Program-made: the position numbers and the translations under genes
Notes under the pieces: generated by a model
What the model was told of the DNA's origin: nothing
Seen by the model: the letters and a program-made list of their open reading frames with translations, nothing else
Database searches by the model: none
Source: a virus
Lineage: Duplodnaviria; Heunggongvirae; Uroviricota; Caudoviricetes
Reading direction: 5' to 3' (one strand)
Virus record (IMG/VR): IMGVR_UViG_2913192161_000003
Coordinates: 1-38,083 of that record
Length of the DNA: 38,083 bases
In this document: positions 5,276 through 38,083 of the stretch, one piece after another
Position numbering within the stretch: position 1 is the first letter of the stretch
Layout of the letters: every line of letters starts with the position of its first letter

Positions 5276-5485
5276 TTAGTGCTGGATAGGGTTTCCGCGT
5301 CCGTCGAGAAGGACGTCAATCACGCAATCACTGAGACGGATGATTTCTGCATCGGTGTGCAGGTATACCCATTTTCTCTCCTGGATTACTGCTGAGACGC
5401 GATAGGTGCGGCCTTTGTGCAGTGCCATCATGCCGGGAGTGACGCACTGGCGAATCATTGGAGTCGTTCCGTAGTGAGACATCAT
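5276..5485 (-). CDS. Hypothetical small protein (69 aa)
   Basis: ORF in track; start ATGATG overlaps the stop of the upstream mini-ORF. Confidence 0.4.
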   Translation of the reverse strand: MMSHYGTTPMIRQCVTPGMMALHKGRTYRVSAVIQERKWVYLHTDAEIIRLSDCVIDVLLDGRGNPIQH

Positions 5486-5646
5486 TTCTTACCCTCCACC
5501 TGAGCCAGTAAACCAGCAACATGCATCTGCCAGCGGTTCAGCGTGACTTGCTCTCGCGGGTTGGTGAGCGACGTTAGCCGCCATTCGTTATTGTTAATGG
5601 CGCAGCACTTTACGGTGTACTGCTTGCCGTTGTGGGTGACTGTCAT
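5482..5646 (-). CDS. Small hypothetical protein (54 aa)
   Basis: Hand-translated (MTVTHNGKQYTVKCC...); coupled by ATGA overlaps to both flanking ORFs. Confidence 0.3.
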   Translation of the reverse strand: MTVTHNGKQYTVKCCAINNNEWRLTSLTNPREQVTLNRWQMHVAGLLAQVEGKK

Positions 5647-5772
5647 GAAGCAGCCTTAAGAGCCTTTTCGGCTTCTTTGATACGGGCTGCGGTGCCAGCA
5701 TTCTGAGCAATTTCATTAAGGTGACGAGCGTCTTCCAAAAGCTTAGCGATTATCTCTTTCAGGTCTGTCATA
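5643..5772 (-). CDS. Small hypothetical protein (42 aa), first ORF of the leftward operon
   Basis: Hand-translated (MTDLKEIIAKLLEDARHL...); AGAGGA RBS upstream of ATG at 5772. Confidence 0.3.
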
Positions 5773-6109
5773 AATCCTCTTGGCCTTATCGCGGCGAACG
5801 GAACGGTTAATACAAGACTTCTGCGCTAATGGGCGGTGGATAGCCGCCGTTCATAACTGAGCGTCCTCTGAGAAGCCGCTGAGGTATGAAAAAAGCCGCA
5901 TTGGGCTGCTTGTGTTGAAATCCTTTGTGGTGCGGTGCAGGGATGCTTATCTTCCCAGTTACTGTCTGGCAGCTGCATTTCACCGCACTACAAAACATTC
6001 CAGATTGTTGCCGGGGTATTTATCCATGCCCGGCGCATGGTTTCCTTGCTTTCCACAGACAAAGGAAATTGCTGAATTGGCTATTCCACAGGCAATTAAG
6101 GAATGATTA

Positions 6110-6942: not shown

Positions 6943-7317
6943 ATGGAACTTCAAGAGTGGGTTGATAGGTTGCGGTGGCTGAGCCATGAACAGATCGTTC
7001 AAGTTCATTTCGGGCTTCAGGAAGAGATTAAGAAATATTACAAACTGAGGGATGAAGCTAATAATCTTGCGCGCGCTGAGCATCTGTGTGAGCAAATGAT
7101 TGCTCTTTCAGAATTGGCATTTCCGGCGCTGAAGAGGGCTCATGATAAAAGAGTAGAAGAATATGAGTCGTTAACTGGCAACAAGTACCCGAGCGAATTC
7201 TATCCGCCATCACACTATGGATTTTCTCAGTTAGTGGTGATCTTGAAGAAAAGAAAGGATTACAAGCGGATTGAAGAACTTCGTGAAAAGATGATTAAAG
7301 AGGGGTGGAGGTGCTAA
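6943..7317 (+). CDS. Hypothetical helical protein (124 aa), AT-rich cargo gene convergent on cI
   Basis: Strong RBS GAAGGAG upstream of ATG; lower GC than flanks; sits where rexAB lie in lambda but on the opposite strand; followed by hairpin GCCCGG-TAA-CCGGGC (7318-7332). Confidence 0.6.
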   Translation: MELQEWVDRLRWLSHEQIVQVHFGLQEEIKKYYKLRDEANNLARAEHLCEQMIALSELAFPALKRAHDKRVEEYESLTGNKYPSEFYPPSHYGFSQLVVILKKRKDYKRIEELREKMIKEGWRC

Positions 7318-7331
7318 GCCCGGTAACCGGG

Positions 7332-8024
7332 CTATGCGAATCTTTTATAATCTATCGACTGTCGTAAAAGCACTCTTGCCATTACATAGAACTGGTCTTC
7401 ATCACCAGGCTCAACATACCACTTCTCGTAAATAGGGTTATCAGAGATTACAGCCAGGCGGTCACGCTGCATCTGAAGTCGCTTGACGTGTAATGTTTTA
7501 CCAAAAGCAAAGACATAAACGCCATCACTGTCGAATGCAGTGACGCCGATATCAACAAAGATTTGGTCTCCCGGAGAAATTGTTCCATCCATGCTGTCAC
7601 CGCTAACTGTGATGACCTTTATATTTTCAGCTGGGCGGTTACCGAACAGAGAGCGCGCTTGCTCAGATGTGTATTCAATAGCTCTAATGGTTTCAATGAA
7701 ATCGCTGGTAACTAAGGCACCCGGGCCCGCACTGGCTTTAACGTCGAGAACATCCACGCGATAGATCCCACTGTTTGGCTTTCTAACCTTGTATAGTGTA
7801 GGGGATTCATTTGCGCTACCGGCAAACATTTCACCTTCGCCAGTAGACAGCCATTCCGGACGCACACCGAGAACCGATGCAATTTCTACAGTTTTGCGTG
7901 AGCTGCTCGCACCATTCAATAGCTTATTAACGCTGGATTGCGCCATCCCTACAGCTTTTGCGAGCCTGCCCTGCGTATATCCTGCGGAAGACATCGCATG
8001 CGCTAAGCGCTCAGAGAATTCCAT
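7332..8024 (-). CDS. cI: CI-like prophage repressor (HTH + S24 LexA-like peptidase domain)
   Basis: N-terminal HTH (QGRLAKAVGMAQSSVNKLL), C-terminal S24 motifs (SGDSM serine, downstream lysine); divergent from the Cro-like gene; start taken at ATG 8024 (track begins on GTG 8030). Confidence 0.85.
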   Translation of the reverse strand: MEFSERLAHAMSSAGYTQGRLAKAVGMAQSSVNKLLNGASSSRKTVEIASVLGVRPEWLSTGEGEMFAGSANESPTLYKVRKPNSGIYRVDVLDVKASAGPGALVTSDFIETIRAIEYTSEQARSLFGNRPAENIKVITVSGDSMDGTISPGDQIFVDIGVTAFDSDGVYVFAFGKTLHVKRLQMQRDRLAVISDNPIYEKWYVEPGDEDQFYVMARVLLRQSIDYKRFA

Positions 8025-8056
8025 ACACACCCCTTAAAAACACTTTCTTTAATCCT

Positions 8057-8097
8057 ATCGCCTATGCGATTATTTAGCAAAAAATCGCATAGGCGAT
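8057..8097. promoter_or_regulatory. OR-like operators: two 14-bp palindromes ATCGC-N4-GCGAT
   Basis: ATCGCCTATGCGAT (8057-8070) and ATCGCATAGGCGAT (8084-8097), 27 bp centre to centre, in the cI/cro divergent intergenic region. Confidence 0.6.
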
Positions 8098-8125
8098 TGA
8101 CATTCGCCAGGGTGATAATCATAAT
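8097..8125 (+). promoter_or_regulatory. Putative PR promoter for the Cro-like gene
   Basis: -35 TTGACA (8097-8102), 17-bp spacer, -10 CATAAT (8120-8125); the -35 abuts the second operator. Confidence 0.55.
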
Positions 8126-8152
8126 CGCTTAAAATTGATAGTTGAGGTGATT

Positions 8153-8383
8153 ATGAAAAACCCCGCAGTAGAAAAGGCGATTGCCATTGCTGGCAGCCAG
8201 AAAGAGCTGGCGAAACGTTGTGGGAAGGCCCAATCAACGATCTGTGACTGGCTGAATGGCAAGAAGCGAATTTCGCCAGTCCATGTGCTCGACCTTGTTA
8301 ATGCGGTTGATGGGGAGATTAAGGCTTACGAGTTTCGTCCAGATCTCCCAGCAATTTTTCCGCATCCGGGCTCCATCGCCTGA
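8153..8383 (+). CDS. cro: Cro-like HTH regulator
   Basis: ORF 8135..8383; start taken at ATG 8153 (MKNPAVEKAI) after GAGGTG RBS; HTH segment (QKELAKRCGKAQSTICDWLNGKK). Confidence 0.7.
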   Translation: MKNPAVEKAIAIAGSQKELAKRCGKAQSTICDWLNGKKRISPVHVLDLVNAVDGEIKAYEFRPDLPAIFPHPGSIA

Positions 8384-8481
8384 GCCGCGCAACAGCTCAC
8401 CGCTCTTTAACAATCTGGAACCCTATTAAACCGGCTGAGTAATCAGCCAATTATTAACTATTCAACGATAGAGATAGCGAT

Positions 8482-9024
8482 ATGCAATCACTTACGTATC
8501 AACAGAGTACCGGAATACACAGCAGCGTGCTGATAAATCGCGCTCAACCGGAACCGGACAATAATCATGAGTTGATCCGCGCGGCGGTTCGCGGCTGGTC
8601 AGCTGCTATCGACAATCAGGACGTGGTGTCAGCGCTCATCATCAACGAATATCGGGAGCAGGGCGGGACTGCTATCAGCTTCCCGGAAGACATCAGCCGG
8701 GCGCGCCAGAAGCTCTTTCGCTTCCTGGATAACCGCTTCGACTCCGAGCAGTACCGAGAAAACGTGCGGAAACTGACTCCAGCAATCATGGCTGTTCTGC
8801 CGCTGGAATATCGGGAAAAGTTGATGCCGGAAGATAGCCTAATGGCTCGTCTGGTACGCATGGAGAAGGAAACCAGCGAAGCGAAAATTGCCGTCGCAAT
8901 GGATGCGCCACGGCATCAGAAGCTGAAAGAACTGAGCGAGGGGATTGTGGAGATGTACCGCGTTGACCCTGGCTTAACCGGTCCGCTGATGGAAATGGTT
9001 CAAATGATGTTGGGGGTTGTATGA
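8482..9024 (+). CDS. CII-like phage regulatory protein (CP76-like), tentative
   Basis: 180-aa ORF between cro and the replication genes; family by recall and position only. Confidence 0.45.
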   Translation: MQSLTYQQSTGIHSSVLINRAQPEPDNNHELIRAAVRGWSAAIDNQDVVSALIINEYREQGGTAISFPEDISRARQKLFRFLDNRFDSEQYRENVRKLTPAIMAVLPLEYREKLMPEDSLMARLVRMEKETSEAKIAVAMDAPRHQKLKELSEGIVEMYRVDPGLTGPLMEMVQMMLGVV

Positions 9025-9109
9025 CGGTTTCAAAAATGGCGAAAGCCGCTCTGCGCGAACAGAAGCGGCCTTCAGGTGGAATTAACTGGATCAATTCACA
9101 AGAGTAATT

Positions 9110-10111
9110 ATGACAAATATCGCCAGAGTATTCAACTTCCCGGCGCCTGAGCCGGGATACTTCCGGAGCAACAGAATGGAGAACAAAAAGTTCGGCCATT
9201 TCTCTCTGTTCAGAAGTCTCCTTCAAACAGATTGGGCTAAAGATACCGCAAAAATGGCTCTCTGGGTTCGATTGCTGGGAGAGGCTTCCTACCGCGTCAG
9301 AACAGTTGAATTTGCCAATAAGCAATGGGAGCTATCAAATGGTCAACTAGTCACTACAGCGGCCATTCTGGCAAGAAAACTTCGTGATCAGGACGGGAAA
9401 GAAAAGAGTCCACAAGCAGTAACCAGAATGCTTAATTTCTTCATCAAAGAGGGGATGATAAGCACTGAAGGAAACCGGTTTGGAACAGTGATAACCATCA
9501 CAAATTACGCCTCGTATCAGGTCGCTTTACCCGATGAACCTTCCGATGAACCTTCCGACAAAGGAAAAGGCAGTAATGGCGCGGGTTTGAGGTTGGTAGC
9601 CGATGAACCATCCGATAAACCAACCGATGAACAGAACAAGACATTAACTAACAATAATAAAAACAATAAGACCTCTACGTCCGAGAATTCTGACGAATCC
9701 TCTGACAAGCTTGGAAAGAAACCTCCTGTCTTGAAACCTGAAGCGGCAATTCAGAGCGGCACAAAGTGGGGTAACTCAGAAGACCTTCGCTGTGCAGAGT
9801 GGCTCTTCGATGTCGTGCAAAGCATCTCTTCGTCTGCCAGAAAACCGAACTATGCAGCATGGACCAATGATATTCGCCTGATGCGAGAGCGTGACCAGAG
9901 AACTCACAAGGAGATCGCCACACTGTTCAAGTGGGCCTGTGAAGACAAATTCTGGAAGGGAAACGTGCTTTGCCCTTCAACACTGCGTGAGAAGTGGACG
10001 CAGCTCGATATCCAGCGCACGAAACAAATCACTGGTGAAACCAGAACGACAGGTAACAAGCCAGAACTCGACTTCAACAACACTGACTGGGCCTATGAGG
10101 TTATGCGATGA
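9110..10111 (+). CDS. O: Replication initiator (lambda O-like)
   Basis: 333 aa; internal acidic linker encoded by the iteron repeats; immediately followed by, and ATGA-coupled to, the P-like gene. Confidence 0.7.
   Translation: MTNIARVFNFPAPEPGYFRSNRMENKKFGHFSLFRSLLQTDWAKDTAKMALWVRLLGEASYRVRTVEFANKQWELSNGQLVTTAAILARKLRDQDGKEKSPQAVTRMLNFFIKEGMISTEGNRFGTVITITNYASYQVALPDEPSDEPSDKGKGSNGAGLRLVADEPSDKPTDEQNKTLTNNNKNNKTSTSENSDESSDKLGKKPPVLKPEAAIQSGTKWGNSEDLRCAEWLFDVVQSISSSARKPNYAAWTNDIRLMRERDQRTHKEIATLFKWACEDKFWKGNVLCPSTLREKWTQLDIQRTKQITGETRTTGNKPELDFNNTDWAYEVMR
9531..9670. repeat. Putative origin of replication: five 12-bp iterons plus AT-rich tract inside the O-like gene
   Basis: CCGATGAACCTT x2 (9531-9554), CCGATGAACCAT, CCGATAAACCAA, CCGATGAACAGA (9600-9635), then AT-rich 9636-9670. 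Confidence 0.6.
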
Positions 10112-10797
10112 AATCTTTTGCAGAGCAGTTACGTAACCACGACCGTGAGCAGATGAGCCGCATAGCCCATAACCTGCCAGAGCAGTACCAGGAGCGCGCG
10201 CCGGTTGAGCAGGTGGCTCTGGTATTCAACGGACTGTTAAACCAGCTGCGTGCCGCGTTTCCGGCCAGCATGGCTAACTTCCGCACCCAGGACGACCTGA
10301 ACGAATTCCGCCGTCAGTGGCTGCTGGCGTTTCAGGAGAATGGGATCCACTCAATGACCCAGGTTGATGCCGGTATGCGTATAGCACGCCGCCAGGAGCG
10401 CCCATTTCTGCCGTCGCCGGGCCAGTTCGTCGCTTGGTGCAAGCAGAGTGGCGGGGTACTGGGTATCACCATTGAACAGGTGATCACCGAATACTGGGAC
10501 TGGCGTAACCGTTCGTTCGAATTCACCTCCAGCGAGCAATTCCCCTGGTCACAGCCGGTCATGTACCACATCTGCCTCGAACTTCGCCACCGCAGCACAG
10601 AGCGCCAGTTAACGCATGGTGAGCTGGCGCGTGAGGCCGGTGTCCTGCTGGACATGTGGGAGAAGCGTGTCTGTGATGGTAAGCCAGTGCCGCCTGTGCG
10701 TCGGGCAATTGCCGCACCAGTTGCCGATCGAGGACCGACGCCTATCCAACTGCTGCAGGCGAAGTACAACCGCAACAAGTCGAGCGGAATGGTGTGA
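10108..10797 (+). CDS. P: Replication protein P (lambda P-like helicase loader)
   Basis: Collinear similarity to lambda P recalled from memory (FxREQMxRIAxNxPEQY, RPFLPSPGQFVAWC). Confidence 0.85.
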   Translation: MKSFAEQLRNHDREQMSRIAHNLPEQYQERAPVEQVALVFNGLLNQLRAAFPASMANFRTQDDLNEFRRQWLLAFQENGIHSMTQVDAGMRIARRQERPFLPSPGQFVAWCKQSGGVLGITIEQVITEYWDWRNRSFEFTSSEQFPWSQPVMYHICLELRHRSTERQLTHGELAREAGVLLDMWEKRVCDGKPVPPVRRAIAAPVADRGPTPIQLLQAKYNRNKSSGMV

Positions 10798-10798
10798 G

Positions 10799-11092
10799 AT
10801 GACTGGTAAGCAGGCAATTCTTAACTACCTAAAGACGCATAAAAATTTTTGTGCGCCTGATGTATCAGCAGCCAGCGGAACAACGATGACCAGCATCAAT
10901 CAGGCTGCAAACATCATGTTTCATGACGGAGTAATTGTCCCTGAAGGAAGGGTATGGAGAACGGTGTATTACCGATACTCCACAGAAGCGGAACGTGAAG
11001 GCCTCGTTAGTACCAACGGGATATTTCAGGAATGCAAGAACTCGGCAGCAATGCAGCGTGTACTGGCGTTTTACGGGAGAACATCAGCGTGA
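10799..11092 (+). CDS. Hypothetical protein (97 aa)
   Basis: ORF 10616..11092 overlaps P; start taken at ATG 10799 just after the P stop (MTGKQAILNYLK...). Confidence 0.45.
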   Translation: MTGKQAILNYLKTHKNFCAPDVSAASGTTMTSINQAANIMFHDGVIVPEGRVWRTVYYRYSTEAEREGLVSTNGIFQECKNSAAMQRVLAFYGRTSA

Positions 11093-11247
11093 AACCAACT
11101 TATCAAGAACTGGAACTGCAACTTGCCGAGTCACATAGCGAGTTCCGGGCAGCAGACGCGACTATTCACAATCTGGAACTGAAACTCACCGATATGGCAG
11201 TACATCTCGCTAACGCCGAGAGCAAGTGCAGGGAGCTGGCGGCGTAG
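11089..11247 (+). CDS. Small coiled-coil protein (52 aa), tentative
   Basis: GTG start overlapping the upstream stop; helical sequence. Confidence 0.3.
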   Translation: MKPTYQELELQLAESHSEFRAADATIHNLELKLTDMAVHLANAESKCRELAA

Positions 11248-11271
11248 AATGTAACCGACGATGAGCGAATT

Positions 11272-11394
11272 ATGGCTATAGAGGGTATTCATAACTGCGA
11301 ACAGTGCGGTGATGAATTTTTTGAAACACAGAGCCGCAGTGTCACCGACTGGATGCCGCTGCCAGAACCGCCGAAGGAGGTTAACCGTGGCTAA
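11272..11394 (+). CDS. Small CxxC protein (40 aa), tentative
   Basis: Hand-translated MAIEGIHNCEQCGDEFF...; stop overlaps the next GTG start. Confidence 0.25.
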   Translation: MAIEGIHNCEQCGDEFFETQSRSVTDWMPLPEPPKEVNRG

Positions 11395-11668
11395 CCTGCA
11401 ACTTGCAGTCAAAGGTGAATACTTCGATGCCATGATTCGCGGAGAGAAAACGGAAGAGTATCGCCTTGTTAATGACTACTGGAAAAAGCGCCTCTTTAAC
11501 CGCGAGTATGACCGTCTGATCATCACAAAAGGATATCCGAAGCGCGATGATTCCAGTCGTAGAATTGACGTCCCGTATGGCGGATATGAAATCAAGGTAA
11601 TAACACATCCGCACTTCGGCCCTGATCCGGTTAAAGTTTTTGCTATAAAGGTGAGCATTAATACTTAA
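11387..11668 (+). CDS. Hypothetical protein, possibly ASCH-like
   Basis: ORF 11309..11668; start taken at GTG 11387 after GGAGG RBS; the KGEYFDAMIRGEKTEEYR segment resembles ASCH-domain N-termini (weak). Confidence 0.4.
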   Translation: MANLQLAVKGEYFDAMIRGEKTEEYRLVNDYWKKRLFNREYDRLIITKGYPKRDDSSRRIDVPYGGYEIKVITHPHFGPDPVKVFAIKVSINT

Positions 11669-11717
11669 ACCATTTTAAACTCAGTCTCGATCCGGTTTAC
11701 CTAAAGCAGGAGAGTTA

Positions 11718-11990
11718 ATGATGGAAAAGGTGAAGGTTTTTACACGAGAACATTTCAGTGACTATATGGATGCTGAATATATTTATTCTACCCGGCAGGG
11801 GAGGAATGGGCCGGTAGCAAATCATCAAATCACTATAGAAAAGAGTGAGCTAAGTGATGGCCTTTTCCTGGGCATGCCCTACAAGATGGCCATAAGCTTG
11901 AACGTGGTTGGGGCCGAAGATGGGTATAGAGATTATTATTTTGTCCACGATACAGCCGATGGGTATGTTTTTCAGACCAACCCCGGATAA
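11718..11990 (+). CDS. Hypothetical protein (90 aa)
   Basis: AGGAGA RBS upstream of ATG. Confidence 0.5.
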   Translation: MMEKVKVFTREHFSDYMDAEYIYSTRQGRNGPVANHQITIEKSELSDGLFLGMPYKMAISLNVVGAEDGYRDYYFVHDTADGYVFQTNPG

Positions 11991-12167
11991 TTGATTTTCT
12001 GAAATCAACCAGCCATAATCGCGTCATCGGAGCCTGAACAACTTCGATGACTTCTGCGCATTTAAGGGGACTTAAATGCGACCACAATCTGAACTCTTCA
12101 CCTTGTCACAGATGCAGAAATGCACCTGCGATTTTCTGCATTCTGCGTTACCTCCCGGAGGTGGCGT

Positions 12168-12617
12168 GTGAAGCAACAATTCCACCTCATGAACGACGCC
12201 ATCAAGCAGAACGCTATCAACTACATCCGCCAGTTGCCGGTGGATGCCAGACGACCACTGATTCTCGACATCAAGGAGATGACGCGCACGCTGGATCAGA
12301 ATCGCAAGATGTGGCCGTTACTGAAAGACCTCTCTGACCAGGTAACCTGGTTCGGCAATAAGTACGACCCTGACGACTGGAAAGACCTGATCACCGCGAT
12401 GGTCGCCAAGGCCAAAAAGCAAGAGCAGAGGATGGCACCTGGTCTCGACGGCGGCGTTGTGATGTTCGGTCAGCGTACAAGCAAGATGACCGTTCGGCAG
12501 ATGGTTGAAGTCATTGAGGCTATCTACTGGTTCGGTACGCAGCAGAGCGTGAAGTTCAGCGAGAAATCCCGCCTCGAAATCGAATGGGCGAAACAGTGGG
12601 GTGAGAAGCATGGCTAA
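12168..12617 (+). CDS. ninB: NinB recombination protein
   Basis: Strong similarity to lambda NinB recalled from memory (LDQNRKMW, VIGQRTSxM, LEIEWAKQWG); start taken at GTG 12168 after GGAGGTG. Confidence 0.8.
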   Translation: MKQQFHLMNDAIKQNAINYIRQLPVDARRPLILDIKEMTRTLDQNRKMWPLLKDLSDQVTWFGNKYDPDDWKDLITAMVAKAKKQEQRMAPGLDGGVVMFGQRTSKMTVRQMVEVIEAIYWFGTQQSVKFSEKSRLEIEWAKQWGEKHG

Positions 12618-12780
12618 CCTCATCAATCGCGTCATGAATGGAGGCATCTACAAAGTACCGGCGCACAGCAAGCGTAAGCCGGAACTGAGCCCATCAGAAA
12701 TACCCACTCTCAAAGATTACACATCCCGCCTAGTGGATCAGAAATGGCTGCGTCTCGCGGCACGGAGGCAGCATGGCTAA
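12610..12780 (+). CDS. Small basic protein, possibly NinE-like
   Basis: 56 aa hand-translated; C-terminus WLRLAARRQ resembles the lambda NinE C-terminus; overlaps the ninB stop. Confidence 0.35.
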   Translation: MANLINRVMNGGIYKVPAHSKRKPELSPSEIPTLKDYTSRLVDQKWLRLAARRQHG

Positions 12781-13063
12781 TTTGTGCAAAGCAGCACGCG
12801 GGCGCGAATGCCAGGTGCGGATCCCTGGGATATGCAACGGAAACTCTGAAACTTCGGTGCTGGCACATATCCGTATAGCTGGTCTATGCGGTACCGGAAT
12901 CAAGCCGCCTGACCTGATCGCCACCATCGCATGTAGCAGCTGCCACGACGAGATTGATCGCCGTACGCGTCTTGTCGATGCGGAATATGCGAAGGAGTGC
13001 GCGCTGGAAGGCATGGCACGCACGCAGGTTATTTGGCTGAAAGAGGGGCTCGTGAAGATATGA
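12773..13063 (+). CDS. YbcO-like protein (DUF1364, putative nuclease)
   Basis: 96 aa cysteine-rich; resembles DLP12 YbcO (recall) and holds the same nin-region position before rusA. Confidence 0.6.
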   Translation: MANLCKAARGRECQVRIPGICNGNSETSVLAHIRIAGLCGTGIKPPDLIATIACSSCHDEIDRRTRLVDAEYAKECALEGMARTQVIWLKEGLVKI

Positions 13064-31204: not shown

Positions 31205-31833
31205 TGTCTTCATTCTCTGACCTGATGAATACCGCATCCGGATCCCTGTCATCGTACAACATGGTGATGTCTTCATTTGCTGTGGATGTTGTACGGATAA
31301 CGGATGAATTTGGCGCTCAGATGTTCACTGAATGCCGTGCTATGCGCGCCGCGTTGAATCGTTCTTCCGATTTGTGTGAGCATCCGCTGGAAACCGGTAA
31401 CACCATCGCTGACTTTAAAATCATCAAACCTAACGTCGCGCAGCTCACGATGTTTATCCCGGCAGATGCGTATGGTTCGGTGTATGGCGACATTGAGCAG
31501 GCTTACGTCAACAGTACATCGCTGATCGTACAGACCCGCGCATCGTCATACGCGGATATGGTTATCACCGACATGCCGCACGATGAGGCGCCAGACCTTG
31601 GTGACACGGTAGCTGTAACGCTAACCCTAAAAGAGGTTCAGTGGTTCACATCGACCGTTGAAACGATGCCTGCCAAAGAGGTTGCGGTGTCCAGCAAGTC
31701 TGCAAAAACAGGAGGCACGGCCAAATCTGATGCCGACACAGTGAAGCAGGGGCAGAAACGCCCATCAGATGCTTCTCCAGCCACTCAAACAAAGTCCAGC
31801 TCTGTGGCGAAGGATATTAAGGACTGGTTCTGA
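31204..31833 (+). CDS. Hypothetical tail protein
   Basis: 209-aa ORF coupled to the tape measure gene. Confidence 0.45.
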   Translation: MSSFSDLMNTASGSLSSYNMVMSSFAVDVVRITDEFGAQMFTECRAMRAALNRSSDLCEHPLETGNTIADFKIIKPNVAQLTMFIPADAYGSVYGDIEQAYVNSTSLIVQTRASSYADMVITDMPHDEAPDLGDTVAVTLTLKEVQWFTSTVETMPAKEVAVSSKSAKTGGTAKSDADTVKQGQKRPSDASPATQTKSSSVAKDIKDWF

Positions 31834-37230: not shown

Positions 37231-37280
37231 ATGGGGTATAATAGATAAATAATACATCATCATACCCCATTTTCGCTATT
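37231..37280 (+). terminator. Hairpin between the convergent tail and acyltransferase genes
   Basis: 9-bp perfect inverted repeat ATGGGGTAT / ATACCCCAT with 23-nt AT-rich loop followed by TTTTCGCTATT. Confidence 0.4.
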
Positions 37281-37309
37281 ATCTATTGGCAAAAATATTC
37301 TTAATACCT

Positions 37310-38083
37310 TTATATTTGCCTACCTCCTAATAAAATGTGTGAGGTGTATTTGTTGGTTTTCAATAACCTTGCTACAATTATGCAGGTGGTTACAATAAGG
37401 AAAACAAATGAAGGGGTTATGATGAGGTTATATATGAGTGGATTTTCGCATAGGTTATTAATGTTCACGTATGCCTCTATTCTGTAAAAAATAAACGACG
37501 AAATTATATAGATAGGAAATGTGTAAATACCGACAAAGGATGTGGTTCGTATAAATAAATTATTTTTCGTTGATAAAAATGTATATGCATATATAAGCGA
37601 CATGCTTCCGGCGAAGCCAATGAAGTAGCGAAATATAATAATGAATGATTGATGCCAGAAATCAACATTATCATATGTCATTTTAGATATGTAAATATAA
37701 TACTCCCTATTCCATAGGAGAAGCATACCAATCCATGTTAATACGGATAAGACACCAAGTTTGTGCCTATTTTTAGAGGCGAAGTCTAAAATGCGATGGG
37801 CGAATATACCAGCGATAAAATAAGGGGCCATAAATTTAATTTTGTCCATATTCCAATCATCTCCATATGCAAGAGATATACTAAAGAACAGTAAATAAAG
37901 CACCGCAGAATATTGTTTGCTTATTGAGTGACAAATAGTATAAGCAATAGATACTGCAAAGAGTGCGGAAAGGAACCAGAAGGCGTAGATGGCTCCATAT
38001 CTAATATTTATTAAATTTATATCTCTTCCCACAAAAATGGATTCAGCAATGAACCATGCAATGGATGGGATTATTAATTGCAT
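37310..38083 (-). CDS. Acyltransferase family 3 integral membrane protein (O-antigen acetylase-like), N-terminus beyond the window
   Basis: 257 aa visible, very hydrophobic multi-TM and aromatic-rich; strongly AT-rich; located after the tail fibre genes, a common place for lysogenic-conversion genes; the ORF runs to the window edge so the true start is probably outside. Confidence 0.65.
   Translation of the reverse strand: MQLIIPSIAWFIAESIFVGRDINLINIRYGAIYAFWFLSALFAVSIAYTICHSISKQYSAVLYLLFFSISLAYGDDWNMDKIKFMAPYFIAGIFAHRILDFASKNRHKLGVLSVLTWIGMLLLWNREYYIYISKMTYDNVDFWHQSFIIIFRYFIGFAGSMSLIYAYTFLSTKNNLFIRTTSFVGIYTFPIYIISSFIFYRIEAYVNINNLCENPLIYNLIITPSFVFLIVTTCIIVARLLKTNKYTSHILLGGRQI

Follow-up and report, generated by a model that had tools for sequence, protein, structure and literature searches.

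The O-like initiator gene and its repeats

The window, that is, the whole stretch of 38,083 nucleotides analysed here, carries on its plus strand, at 9110..10111, a gene that the ORF listing translates into an O-like replication initiator of 333 residues. The protein is 47% identical to lambda O over residues 111-331 and matches PHROG families of O-like replication initiation proteins and of DnaD-like loaders. Overlapping the O stop codon by 4 bases lies a lambda-P-type helicase-loader gene (10108..10797, plus strand; Pfam Phage_lambda_P, E 5.5e-46), whose product is 46% identical to lambda P, and both reading frames are intact. Homology to lambda O and P, the PHROG matches and the adjacent P-type gene bear out the earlier, sequence-only reading of this DNA in its claim of an O-like initiator gene. 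Residues R19, S20 and R22, located upstream of Met23, the start chosen by NCBI, are invariant across the repeat classes described below; we therefore favour the start at 9110 over Met23.

The O-like protein is composed of an N-terminal winged-helix domain, a disordered linker region that holds the putative origin and a lambda-O-type C-terminal domain. Its AlphaFold model is confident only for residues ~34-133 and ~210-308 (mean pLDDT 57.5), and linker residues 138-210, including the stretch encoded by the repeats, are predicted to be disordered (pLDDT <50). The predicted winged-helix DNA-binding domain (residues 34-133, encoded at 9209..9508 on the plus strand) comprises helix 46-59, a beta hairpin, helices 84-90 and 101-113 and a wing at 117-130, modelled at pLDDT about 64-80. 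Helix 101-113, encoded at 9410-9448 on the plus strand, is the predicted recognition helix. A fold search with the model returned generic neighbours, mostly winged-helix regulators, the best of them weak (E of at least 0.045), and a sequence search with the O-like protein found no match among solved structures. Unlike in the ori-lambda system, the N-domain matches Pfam Phage_rep_O (PF04492) only below the cut-off (E 3.4e-5, 24.7 bits, cut-off 28.7); PF04492 is present in the precomputed annotation of relatives assigned to repeat class C.

Within the gene, two blocks of three codon-phased 12-bp units occupy 9530..9565 (block 1) and 9599..9634 (block 2) on the plus strand. The six units begin at 9530, 9542, 9554, 9599, 9611 and 9623; five are good copies, and the one at 9554 (TCCGACAAAGGA) is degenerate. 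The conserved part of the 12-mer is an 8-bp core, CGATGAAC, whereas the final two to three bases are variable. In block 1, this core is found at 9532-9539 and 9544-9551, followed by the degenerate third core CGACAAAG at 9556-9563; in block 2, it is found at 9601-9608 and 9625-9632, with CGATAAAC at 9613-9620 between them, all on the plus strand. Tandem Repeats Finder reported 2.3 copies at 9531-9558 (period 12, 100% match, unit CCGATGAACCTT) and 2.8 copies at 9600-9632 (period 12, 85% match). The five repeat copies are in register, with spacings of 12, 12, 57 and 12, and the blocks start 69 bp apart. Searching the 38 kb with CCGATGAACC at no more than one mismatch gave 8 matches against 2.65 expected, a number reached in 0 of 100 shuffles. 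Five of these matches lie within 9531-9633, all on the plus strand, and the remaining three are scattered singletons; elsewhere in the window the repeat core does not exceed chance. Thus, the five 12-bp repeats in two blocks proposed in the sequence-only reading were recovered at their positions within the O-like gene both by Tandem Repeats Finder and by the repeat search. The O gene was searched for further repeat families and none was found.

The blocks are separated by a 33-bp spacer, AAAGGCAGTAATGGCGCGGGTTTGAGGTTGGTA (9566..9598, plus strand), which encodes KGSNGAGLRLV and is conserved in relatives. Its centre, AGTAATGGCGCGG, is common to all specificity classes. Among 33 distinct spacers, the codon GGC is used in 26 (other Gly codons in 3) and GCG in 27 (other Ala codons in 4).

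Immediately after block 2 comes an A-rich, easily melted tract (9635..9676, plus strand), which we presume to be the DNA-unwinding element because of its low GC content, its low stability and its alignment with the tracts of lambdoid phages. Positions 9635-9670 (36 bp) have 20% GC, with 22 A and 6 T, and this 36-mer is the least stable duplex in 7000-13000; over the whole window, it ranks among the lowest 0.17% in stability. The 35-bp AT-rich tract noted earlier after the repeats is therefore real (9636-9670, 20% GC). It is followed by the conserved right arm of the putative origin, ACGTCCGAGAATTCTGACGAATCCTCTGAC (9677..9706, plus strand), homologous to lambda TCGTCAGAGAATTCTGGCGAATCCTCTGAC.

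Upstream of the array, a perfect palindrome, GTGATAACCATCAC, spans 9488..9501 and ends 28 bp before the first unit (9530). It encodes the wing strand V-I-T-I-T and is found in nearly all classes, and its four-fold degenerate sites are unusually constant (V127 is GTG in 14/17, T129 is ACC in 12/14). Whether it forms part of the origin is uncertain. A wider palindrome, I1, was noted at 9454-9499, and a single IHF-like match with a mismatch occurs at 9333, about 200 bp upstream of the array.

Repeat cores and N-domains among relatives

The two halves of the gene differ in their relatives. Megablast matches to the O genes of lambda-like phages begin at query base 521 (window position 9630), and this C-domain half is the only part that matches known phages by megablast. 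No close DNA relatives of the N-domain half were found by megablast in the phage and E. coli genome collections; its relatives were reached by protein searches. A query with the N-domain alone retrieved only 12 proteins, mostly truncated, so the structure alignment was built with the full-length protein as query. In IMG/VR there are at least 572 relatives. They include Stx2a phages, CUS-3/Kapi1 and phages of Klebsiella, Yersinia and Enterobacter. The layout seen in the window recurs in about 100 related loci; among the loci inspected, this layout is present wherever the region could be located. The same architecture is present in the isolated phages Kapi1, CUS-3, Mulock and Yersinia 29.18. The number of blocks ranges from one, with three repeats, in locus L083 to four in locus L040. 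The single block of L083 means that two blocks may be dispensable, or else that the L083 prophage may be defective. In block 2, the first and last units are best kept among relatives, and the middle unit drifts.

Across these ~100 loci, the 8-bp core changes together with the recognition helix of the N-domain, defining at least six specificity classes. The window belongs to class A, in which the core CGATGAAC goes with a helix starting SPQAVTRM. In the other classes, GTCGAA is paired with SAKAVERM, CGCACAT with SRDxVERM, GGTAACAAA with xAKQVRDM, CGCGCAT with SRHAVxRM and CCGnnnAACC with SAKAVTRM. Residues 101, 102 and 105 differ by repeat class; at position 102, D accompanies CGCACAT, H accompanies CGCGCAT and Q accompanies CGATGAAC. 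The mosaic N-domains of loci L075 and L077 have helix 2 and a wing resembling those of class D, but their helix 3 starts SRDQVKRM and their repeats are of the CGCACAT type. A C-domain nearly identical to that of the window occurs with class-C N-domains and class-C repeats. In the sequences compared, then, the repeat core follows the N-domain and not the swappable C-domain. The sequences share ancestry, and class assignment was done by eye and by regular expression; the number of independent lineages behind this covariation is therefore about six or seven.

The pattern of conservation within the units indicates what is being conserved. The class-A units, 84 in number and drawn from 14 distinct origins, all have C (84/84) at position 3, which is the third, four-fold degenerate position of a codon. 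Constancy is 94% or higher at positions 4-5 and 8-9, whereas positions 1 and 11, which are first and second codon positions, vary freely, as does position 12. Units of the CGCACAT class likewise keep one base at two four-fold sites, in 106/106 and 105/106 cases. The control was taken from conserved codons of the same N-domains, whose four-fold sites agree in only 29-58% of pairwise comparisons. The encoded peptides (DEPS, AHEA, VEGS/DEPP and EVTK, depending on the class) have no common physicochemical character. Moreover, in Salmonella phage L, the repeats have an 11-bp period and are read in three frames, so there is no peptide repeat at all. Because the core is conserved whatever the codon position, and because of the 11-bp period of phage L, the repeat is to be regarded as a DNA element. 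This bears on the acidic DEPSDEPSD linker proposed in the sequence-only reading. The repeats do encode PDEPSDEPSD (residues 141-150) in block 1 and ADEPSDKPTDEQ (residues 164-175) in block 2; the acidic character, however, is a by-product, as other classes encode different peptides. Judging from these profiles, the DEPS-type peptide is a tolerated, disordered by-product rather than a selected feature. Since one 12-bp period corresponds to four codons, and relatives differ in the copy number of the blocks by 12, 24 or 69 bp, the array can grow or shrink in frame.

Comparison with lambda, phage L and plasmid origins

Origins lie inside initiator genes also in phi80 (gene 15) and P22 (gene 18). 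In lambda, binding of O to ori-lambda and unwinding there are well established, and the iterons are imperfect inverted repeats of about 19 bp, each bound by an O dimer (PMC7466680). Lambda iterons are annotated in NC_001416, where ori-lambda spans 39034-39166 inside gene O. The sequence-only reading had likened the window to this arrangement and had suggested a comparison with the ori regions of lambda-like phages. In that comparison, the A-rich tract and the right arm do align with those of lambda, phi80 and other lambdoid phages. As in lambda, the putative origin occupies the central part of the initiator gene, flanked by the regions for the N- and C-domains (repeats and tract encode residues 141-187), and has an initiator-specific repeat array with an A-rich tract of about 40 bp downstream of it. 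Homology at the DNA level extends to the right arm (TCGTCnGAGAATTCTGnCGAATCCTCTGAC), which begins at a nearly equal distance from the last iteron, 44 bp in the window and 42 bp in lambda. Its alignment has columns invariant among the window, lambda, phi80, Lambda_4C10, GF-2, Mulock and Yersinia phage 29.18. In both systems, repeats differ between phages of different specificity.

The likeness to lambda thus holds for the location in the initiator gene, the tract and the right arm, but does not extend to the repeats, which are 12-bp head-to-tail units rather than 19-bp inverted repeats. Iterons of lambda, phi80 and Lambda_4C10 are 15-19 bp long, about 20-24 bp apart and have internal dyad symmetry. 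Perfect 5-bp inverted repeats with a gap of at most 8 number 5 in the lambda array, 6 in that of phi80 and 13 in that of Lambda_4C10, whereas none is present in the arrays of the window, Kapi1 or ENT1. We also considered a hidden lambda-like dyad and rejected it, since its GATG...CATC arms arise only if position 12 of the unit is A, and that position is freely variable. Lambda, in turn, lacks the conserved 33-bp spacer that splits the window's two blocks of three. Given the lack of dyad symmetry in the repeats, the placement of the protein on them probably differs from that in lambda, and, with no dyad of the kind used by lambda O dimers, the analogy with the O-some may fail in detail.

A parallel in layout is offered by gene 18 of Salmonella phage L, whose repeats were taken as a likely origin by the authors from sequence alone (GenBank MW013503, rep_origin 31650-31726; G3 2021, PMC8022706). 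Apart from that paper, literature searches on the repeat sequence, on 12-bp O-gene repeats and on Kapi1/CUS-3 origins yielded no description. Both systems have, inside an O-like gene, three short direct repeats, a spacer with AGTAATG(G/A)CGCGG, three more repeats and an AT-rich stretch. The window conforms to this type in every element: 3+3 direct repeats, the AGTAATGrCGCGG spacer, the AT-rich tract and a gene 18 homologue. The phage L spacer carries AGTAATGACGCGGCT although the N-domain of phage L is a distant homologue (27% identity, E 2e-7). Phage L differs in its repeat core (TGTCCAACGGA), in a period that is not codon-phased, in the distance between blocks (66 bp, against 69 in the window), in having another C-domain and in its partner, a DnaB-like helicase instead of a P-type loader.

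Plasmid iteron origins such as those of pPS10 (RepA), R6K (pi) and RK2 (TrfA) likewise place asymmetric direct repeats, recognised by a winged-helix initiator, beside an AT-rich unwinding element, and their iterons evolve in step with the initiator, the two forming a specificity pair. Such iterons typically measure 17-22 bp, follow one another at intervals of about two helical turns and usually have DnaA boxes in the vicinity; they are bound by Rep monomers having two winged-helix domains. The window shares with theta-plasmid iteron origins the asymmetric direct repeats, the adjoining AT-rich element and the co-variation of repeats with the initiator. It differs in the 12-bp length of the units, in the single predicted winged-helix domain, in having no DnaA box and in the placement of the array within the initiator coding sequence. 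A plasmid-type iteron origin was rejected on account of the 12-bp units, the single predicted winged-helix domain and the lack of a DnaA box in 9300-9900.

The putative origin and its significance

Taken together, these observations make it probable that 9530-9706 is the replication origin of a lambdoid prophage, lying within the prophage's own initiator gene, in the part that codes for the linker. Covariation and the constraint on synonymous sites suggest that the O-like protein would bind the 8-bp core CGATGAAC through its N-terminal winged-helix domain. Its six sites, five good and one weak, would follow one another head to tail in 12-bp steps, three to each of the two blocks. By homology with ori-lambda and from the computed stability, the assembly of several protomers formed in this way, similar to the lambda O-some, may be expected to destabilise the adjoining 36-42-bp A-rich tract. 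The lambda-type C-domain of O would then bring the P-like protein and host DnaB to the opened DNA, as the homology with lambda O and P implies. The prophage itself may be inactive. For this subfamily, the searchable literature yielded no experimental report of DNA binding by O, of unwinding or of an active origin.

Other explanations fare considerably worse. It is unlikely that the array is a relic of a defective prophage, or that the repeats are bound by a host factor instead of O. Many enterobacterial lambdoid prophages are indeed cryptic, and the class-invariant spacer suggests that a factor common to all classes may act here. However, the intact O and P frames and the occurrence of the same architecture in isolated phages (Kapi1, CUS-3, Mulock, Yersinia 29.18) speak against a relic. 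A shared host factor, for its part, could not account for cores that change with the phage's own N-domain, and no DnaA box was found within 9300-9900 at up to 1 mismatch.

If anything, it is even a little less likely that the repeats, while being O-binding sites, are chiefly regulatory, serving initiator titration, handcuffing, exclusion of related phages or autoregulation. According to PMC3349717, lambda-type replication is inhibited in trans by cloned lambda iterons. Unit and block copy number varies among relatives, and small Salmonella Infantis circles of 5.87 kb carry the N-domain and repeats without the C-domain, all of which would fit such a role. Yet the repeats occupy the position of lambda iterons, directly upstream of a tract and right arm homologous to those of ori-lambda, and no alternative origin-like array was found in or near the O and P genes. 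Besides, regulation and origin firing are compatible in lambda and in plasmids. The Infantis circles were also considered as proof of an autonomous origin; they are suggestive only, as their O is truncated and the loader gene is absent.

The least plausible idea, and a very improbable one, is that the repeats are selected as a peptide, for instance an acidic flexible linker, with initiator-binding sites elsewhere: the repeats are in frame at four codons per unit with a DEPS-type output, and the region is predicted to be disordered as in many repetitive linkers, but the conservation tracks a contiguous 8-bp DNA block including four-fold sites while amino-acid-changing positions vary, the peptides are unlike across classes, phage L keeps the DNA layout without a peptide repeat, and the O gene has no other repeat family. 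Peptide-level selection was accordingly discarded on the codon-position profile and the phage L period.

The putative origin is thus an ordinary lambda-style one with unusual short one-directional repeats, a design already suspected in Salmonella phage L, and the accepted picture of lambdoid replication initiation is unchanged. We tentatively suggest, as a possibility somewhat short of an even chance, that it represents a widespread, so far uncharacterised sub-type of lambdoid origin. In this sub-type, a single winged-helix domain would be placed head to tail on asymmetric iterons of 11-12 bp, not as a dimer on palindromic 19-mers, and specificity would reside in residues 101-105 at the start of helix 3. 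The triplets of iterons would flank the class-invariant AGTAATGGCGCGG (peptide SNGA), which would have a partner shared by all classes and would act either as DNA, through a host factor, or as a short peptide motif in the linker.

For this prophage, the analysis locates the most likely replication start and accounts for the striking repeat in the coding sequence, which is seen as an element of the DNA and not as a peptide feature. For the family, it reveals a natural series of matched initiator-iteron pairs, with at least six specificities on one scaffold and a mosaic that maps specificity to helix 3. Such pairs may be useful for understanding how a winged-helix initiator reads short one-directional sites and for designing orthogonal lambda-type replicons. 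They may also help to predict which lambdoid prophages, Stx2a-converting phages among them, are compatible in replication and which exclude one another.

The repeat array and its lambdoid setting

The repeats lie within an O-like ORF of 333 codons (9110-10111, plus strand), which shares a 4-base overlap with the 229-codon ORF that follows (10108-10797, plus strand). The latter clearly encodes a lambda-P homologue: it matches Pfam Phage_lambda_P at E 5.5e-46, and its product and lambda P are 46% identical. The O-like ORF matches Pfam Phage_rep_O weakly (E 3.4e-5, score below the cut-off), the C-terminal two-thirds of its product are 47% identical to lambda O, and it matches PHROG families labelled replication initiation O-like. 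Upstream are a cI-like S24 repressor (7332-8030, minus strand; Pfam/PHROG), an HTH protein in the cro position and a CII-like protein; together with them, the O-like/P-like region makes up the early-right operon of a lambdoid prophage. Pfam names the ORFs in the cro and cII positions (8135-8383 and 8482-9024) YdaS_toxin and YdaT_toxin (compare the Rac prophage), and PHROG identifies the second as a CII-like activator; the "toxin" names are probably mislabels of ordinary lambdoid regulators. Escherichia sp. E1V33 carries an N-terminal domain (N-domain) of the O-like protein 100% identical to that of the window. NCBI records of this protein family begin at Met23 (311 aa). The longer 333-aa form is probably the right one: R19, S20 and R22, upstream of Met23, do not vary between divergent classes, and the ATG at 9110 has an AAGAG Shine-Dalgarno-like motif in front of it.

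The sequence-only reading had described five 12-bp repeats in two blocks, followed by an AT-rich tract, as a putative origin. Tandem Repeats Finder reports period-12 arrays at 9531-9558 and 9600-9632, and the five copies share one register. The 10-mer CCGATGAACC (at most one mismatch) occurs eight times in the window against 2.65 expected, a count reached in 0 of 100 shuffles, and five of the eight matches fall within 103 bp on a single strand. Cut in codon phase, the array comprises six plus-strand units: CCCGATGAACCT (starting at 9530), TCCGATGAACCT (9542) and a degenerate TCCGACAAAGGA (9554), then GCCGATGAACCA (9599), TCCGATAAACCA (9611) and ACCGATGAACAG (9623). The tract at 9635-9670 is 20% GC with a strong A bias and, by computed duplex stability, is the least stable 36-mer in 7000-13000. 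The arrays and the unstable A-rich tract thus confirm the earlier observation. Elsewhere in the window, a very AT-rich island (37237-38028) holds most of its least stable 36-mers and may be foreign cargo or the end of the prophage.

Comparison with ori-lambda and a conserved layout

A lambdoid origin within the O gene is an already known kind of element. Experiments defined the lambda origin as iterons and an AT-rich tract lying in the central part of O, and likewise showed unwinding by two iterons with the tract (PMC7466680). Megablast matches between the window and O genes of lambda-like phages start at 9630, the exact end of the repeats. An alignment that starts at the last repeat and covers the window and six phages (lambda, phi80, Lambda_4C10, Edwardsiella phage GF-2, Klebsiella phage Mulock and Yersinia phage 29.18) shows an A-rich tract in every sequence and, after it, a nearly invariant TCGTCnGAGAATTCTGnCGAATCCTCTGAC. 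In lambda, the tract and the TCGTCnGAGAATTCTGnCGAATCCTCTGAC-type motif lie directly to the right of the four annotated iterons, and the motif starts 42 bp after the last repeat ends, compared with 44 bp in the window. This comparison supports the proposed interpretation as a lambda-like origin embedded in the initiator gene.

The repeats themselves differ from those of lambda. Lambda-type iterons are 15-19 bp long with internal dyad symmetry, and perfect 5-bp inverted repeats number 5 per array in lambda, 6 in phi80 and 13 in Lambda_4C10, whereas none occur in the arrays of the window, Kapi1 and ENT1. The window-type sites are therefore asymmetric, arranged head to tail 12 bp apart, which suggests that each unit would be bound by a single winged-helix domain instead of by a symmetric dimer, as proposed for an iteron. 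The structure model supports a single winged-helix domain with moderate confidence, and its fold matches are weak.

By tblastn, the N-domain is present in isolated phages of Escherichia, Klebsiella, Yersinia, Enterobacter and Salmonella and in 48 Stx2a-converting phages; an IMG/VR profile scan gave at least 572 relatives, from which 80 loci were retained. Every locus where the region could be located shows one layout, except L083, a relative with a single block and no spacer. The end of the winged-helix domain (…VITITNY…) is followed by a block of short direct repeats, a spacer with AGTAATGGCGCGG, a second block, GAACAGAACAAGAAGG, an AT-rich stretch and one of at least three unrelated C-domains (a lambda-O type with P, a P22-gp18 type with a DnaB-like helicase, and a third type). 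Array lengths differ by 24 bp (two units) or by 69/138 bp (one or two blocks plus spacer), and in some relatives whole 69-bp block-plus-spacer modules have been gained or lost: L083 has one block, L040 four, and L053 and L040 at least three to four. Unless the prophages concerned are defective, such duplication and loss imply that the number of units in the origin can range between 3 and at least 12. This sub-architecture of short direct repeats, spacer and second block had been noticed once before, in Salmonella phage L (MW013503), where six imprecise 11-bp repeats were named the likely origin from sequence alone (PMC8022706) and GenBank marks a putative rep_origin. In the literature outside subscription papers, we found neither experimental work on any subfamily member nor a description of the CGATGAAC or CGCACAT repeat classes.

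Salmonella Infantis has circular elements of ~5.87 kb corresponding to a lambdoid immunity segment, represented by L107 (NZ_CP148820.1, 5872 bp circular; truncated O gene of class A, the window's own repeat-core class, at 5285-5872 wrapping to 30), about 17 similar PLSDB records and L108. They encode an N-like antiterminator, a ParA-like protein, cI, cro, cII and, at the end, a truncated O (205 aa) that retains the class-A DNA-binding domain together with the two repeat blocks and the AT tract but lacks the C-domain; no P, DnaB or other loader gene is present on the circles. Possible explanations are mini-replicons that depend on a helper, a decoy against related phages, or an artefact of assembly. 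The 2.7-kb record OR850084.1 is probably mislabelled or contaminated: under the name "Staphylococcus phage SA 1298 Kay" it encodes an enterobacterial O N-domain of class A, whose match scores identically to that of Salmonella phage S.Inf 5-2.

Probable selection on DNA rather than on the encoded peptide

Conservation was scored per position in codon-phased 12-mers cut from the arrays. In the class to which the window belongs, sampled by 84 units from 14 distinct origins, positions 2-10 form the contiguous conserved part; at position 3, a third codon position with four-fold degeneracy, every unit has C (84/84), and positions 1 and 11 (first and second codon positions) and 12 are variable. In the CGCACAT class two four-fold sites are constant (106/106 and 105/106 units). 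By comparison, four-fold sites of conserved codons in the same N-domains are 29-58% identical pairwise, and only 40% identical even where the proteins are 91% identical. As read from these alignments, the pattern is the reverse of that expected under protein selection. Phage L has the same layout with an 11-bp unit that uses three reading frames and yields no peptide repeat; the repeat peptides of the classes (DEPS, AHEA, VEGS, EVTK) share nothing, and aa 138-210 are predicted to be disordered (pLDDT < 50). Peptide-level selection of the repeat is rejected on the four-fold constancy and phage L's 11-bp period. The repeats do encode the DEPS acidic linker, as had been pointed out, but the synonymous-site constraint, phage L's unit and the dissimilar, disordered peptides make the linker a by-product of the DNA element.

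Two neighbouring segments also have conserved four-fold sites. The core of the 33-bp spacer between the blocks (9566-9598, plus strand; also 1685-1716 in L110, another compared locus), AGTAATGGCGCGG, encodes SNGA and is shared by all six specificity classes, with conservation also at four-fold sites; among 33 distinct spacers, GGC is used in 26 (three other Gly codons) and GCG in 27 (four other Ala codons). It is retained in phage L despite 27% N-domain identity, and may serve as a site for a shared host factor or, within the disordered linker, as a short peptide motif. The perfect palindrome GTGATAACCATCAC (9488-9501), which begins 42 bp and ends 28 bp upstream of the first unit, encodes the wing strand VITIT and occurs in nearly all classes. 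With two unusually constant four-fold sites (GTG 14/17, ACC 12/14), it may be a DNA element besides coding sequence.

Specificity classes and the presumed binder

There are at least six repeat-core classes, each with its own N-domain version, and the N-domains differ most sharply where predicted helix 3 begins (aa 101-105, window numbering). SPQAVTRM accompanies the core CGATGAAC, SAKAVERM GTCGAA, SRDxVERM CGCACAT, xAKQVRDM GGTAACAAA (class D), SRHAVxRM CGCGCAT, and SAKAVTRM CCGnnnAACC. Within the window's class, two sub-lineages agree in helix 3 and core although they are only ~70% identical overall. Two IMG/VR contigs, L075 and L077, encode naturally mosaic N-domains that resemble the GGTAACAAA class in helix 2 and the wing, and the CGCACAT class where helix 3 starts (SRDQVKRM). 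Their repeats are of the CGCACAT type, an indication that helix 3 is the putative specificity determinant. C-domains nearly identical to that of the window were found in proteins with the N-domain and repeats of another class, C. Class matching and these class-C proteins indicate that the repeats are inherited with the N-domain and not with the C-domain. Such co-inheritance would be expected for an initiator paired with its iterons, and it argues against a host factor as the binder. Beyond the origin itself, the analysis is most useful for its comparative series of specificity classes.
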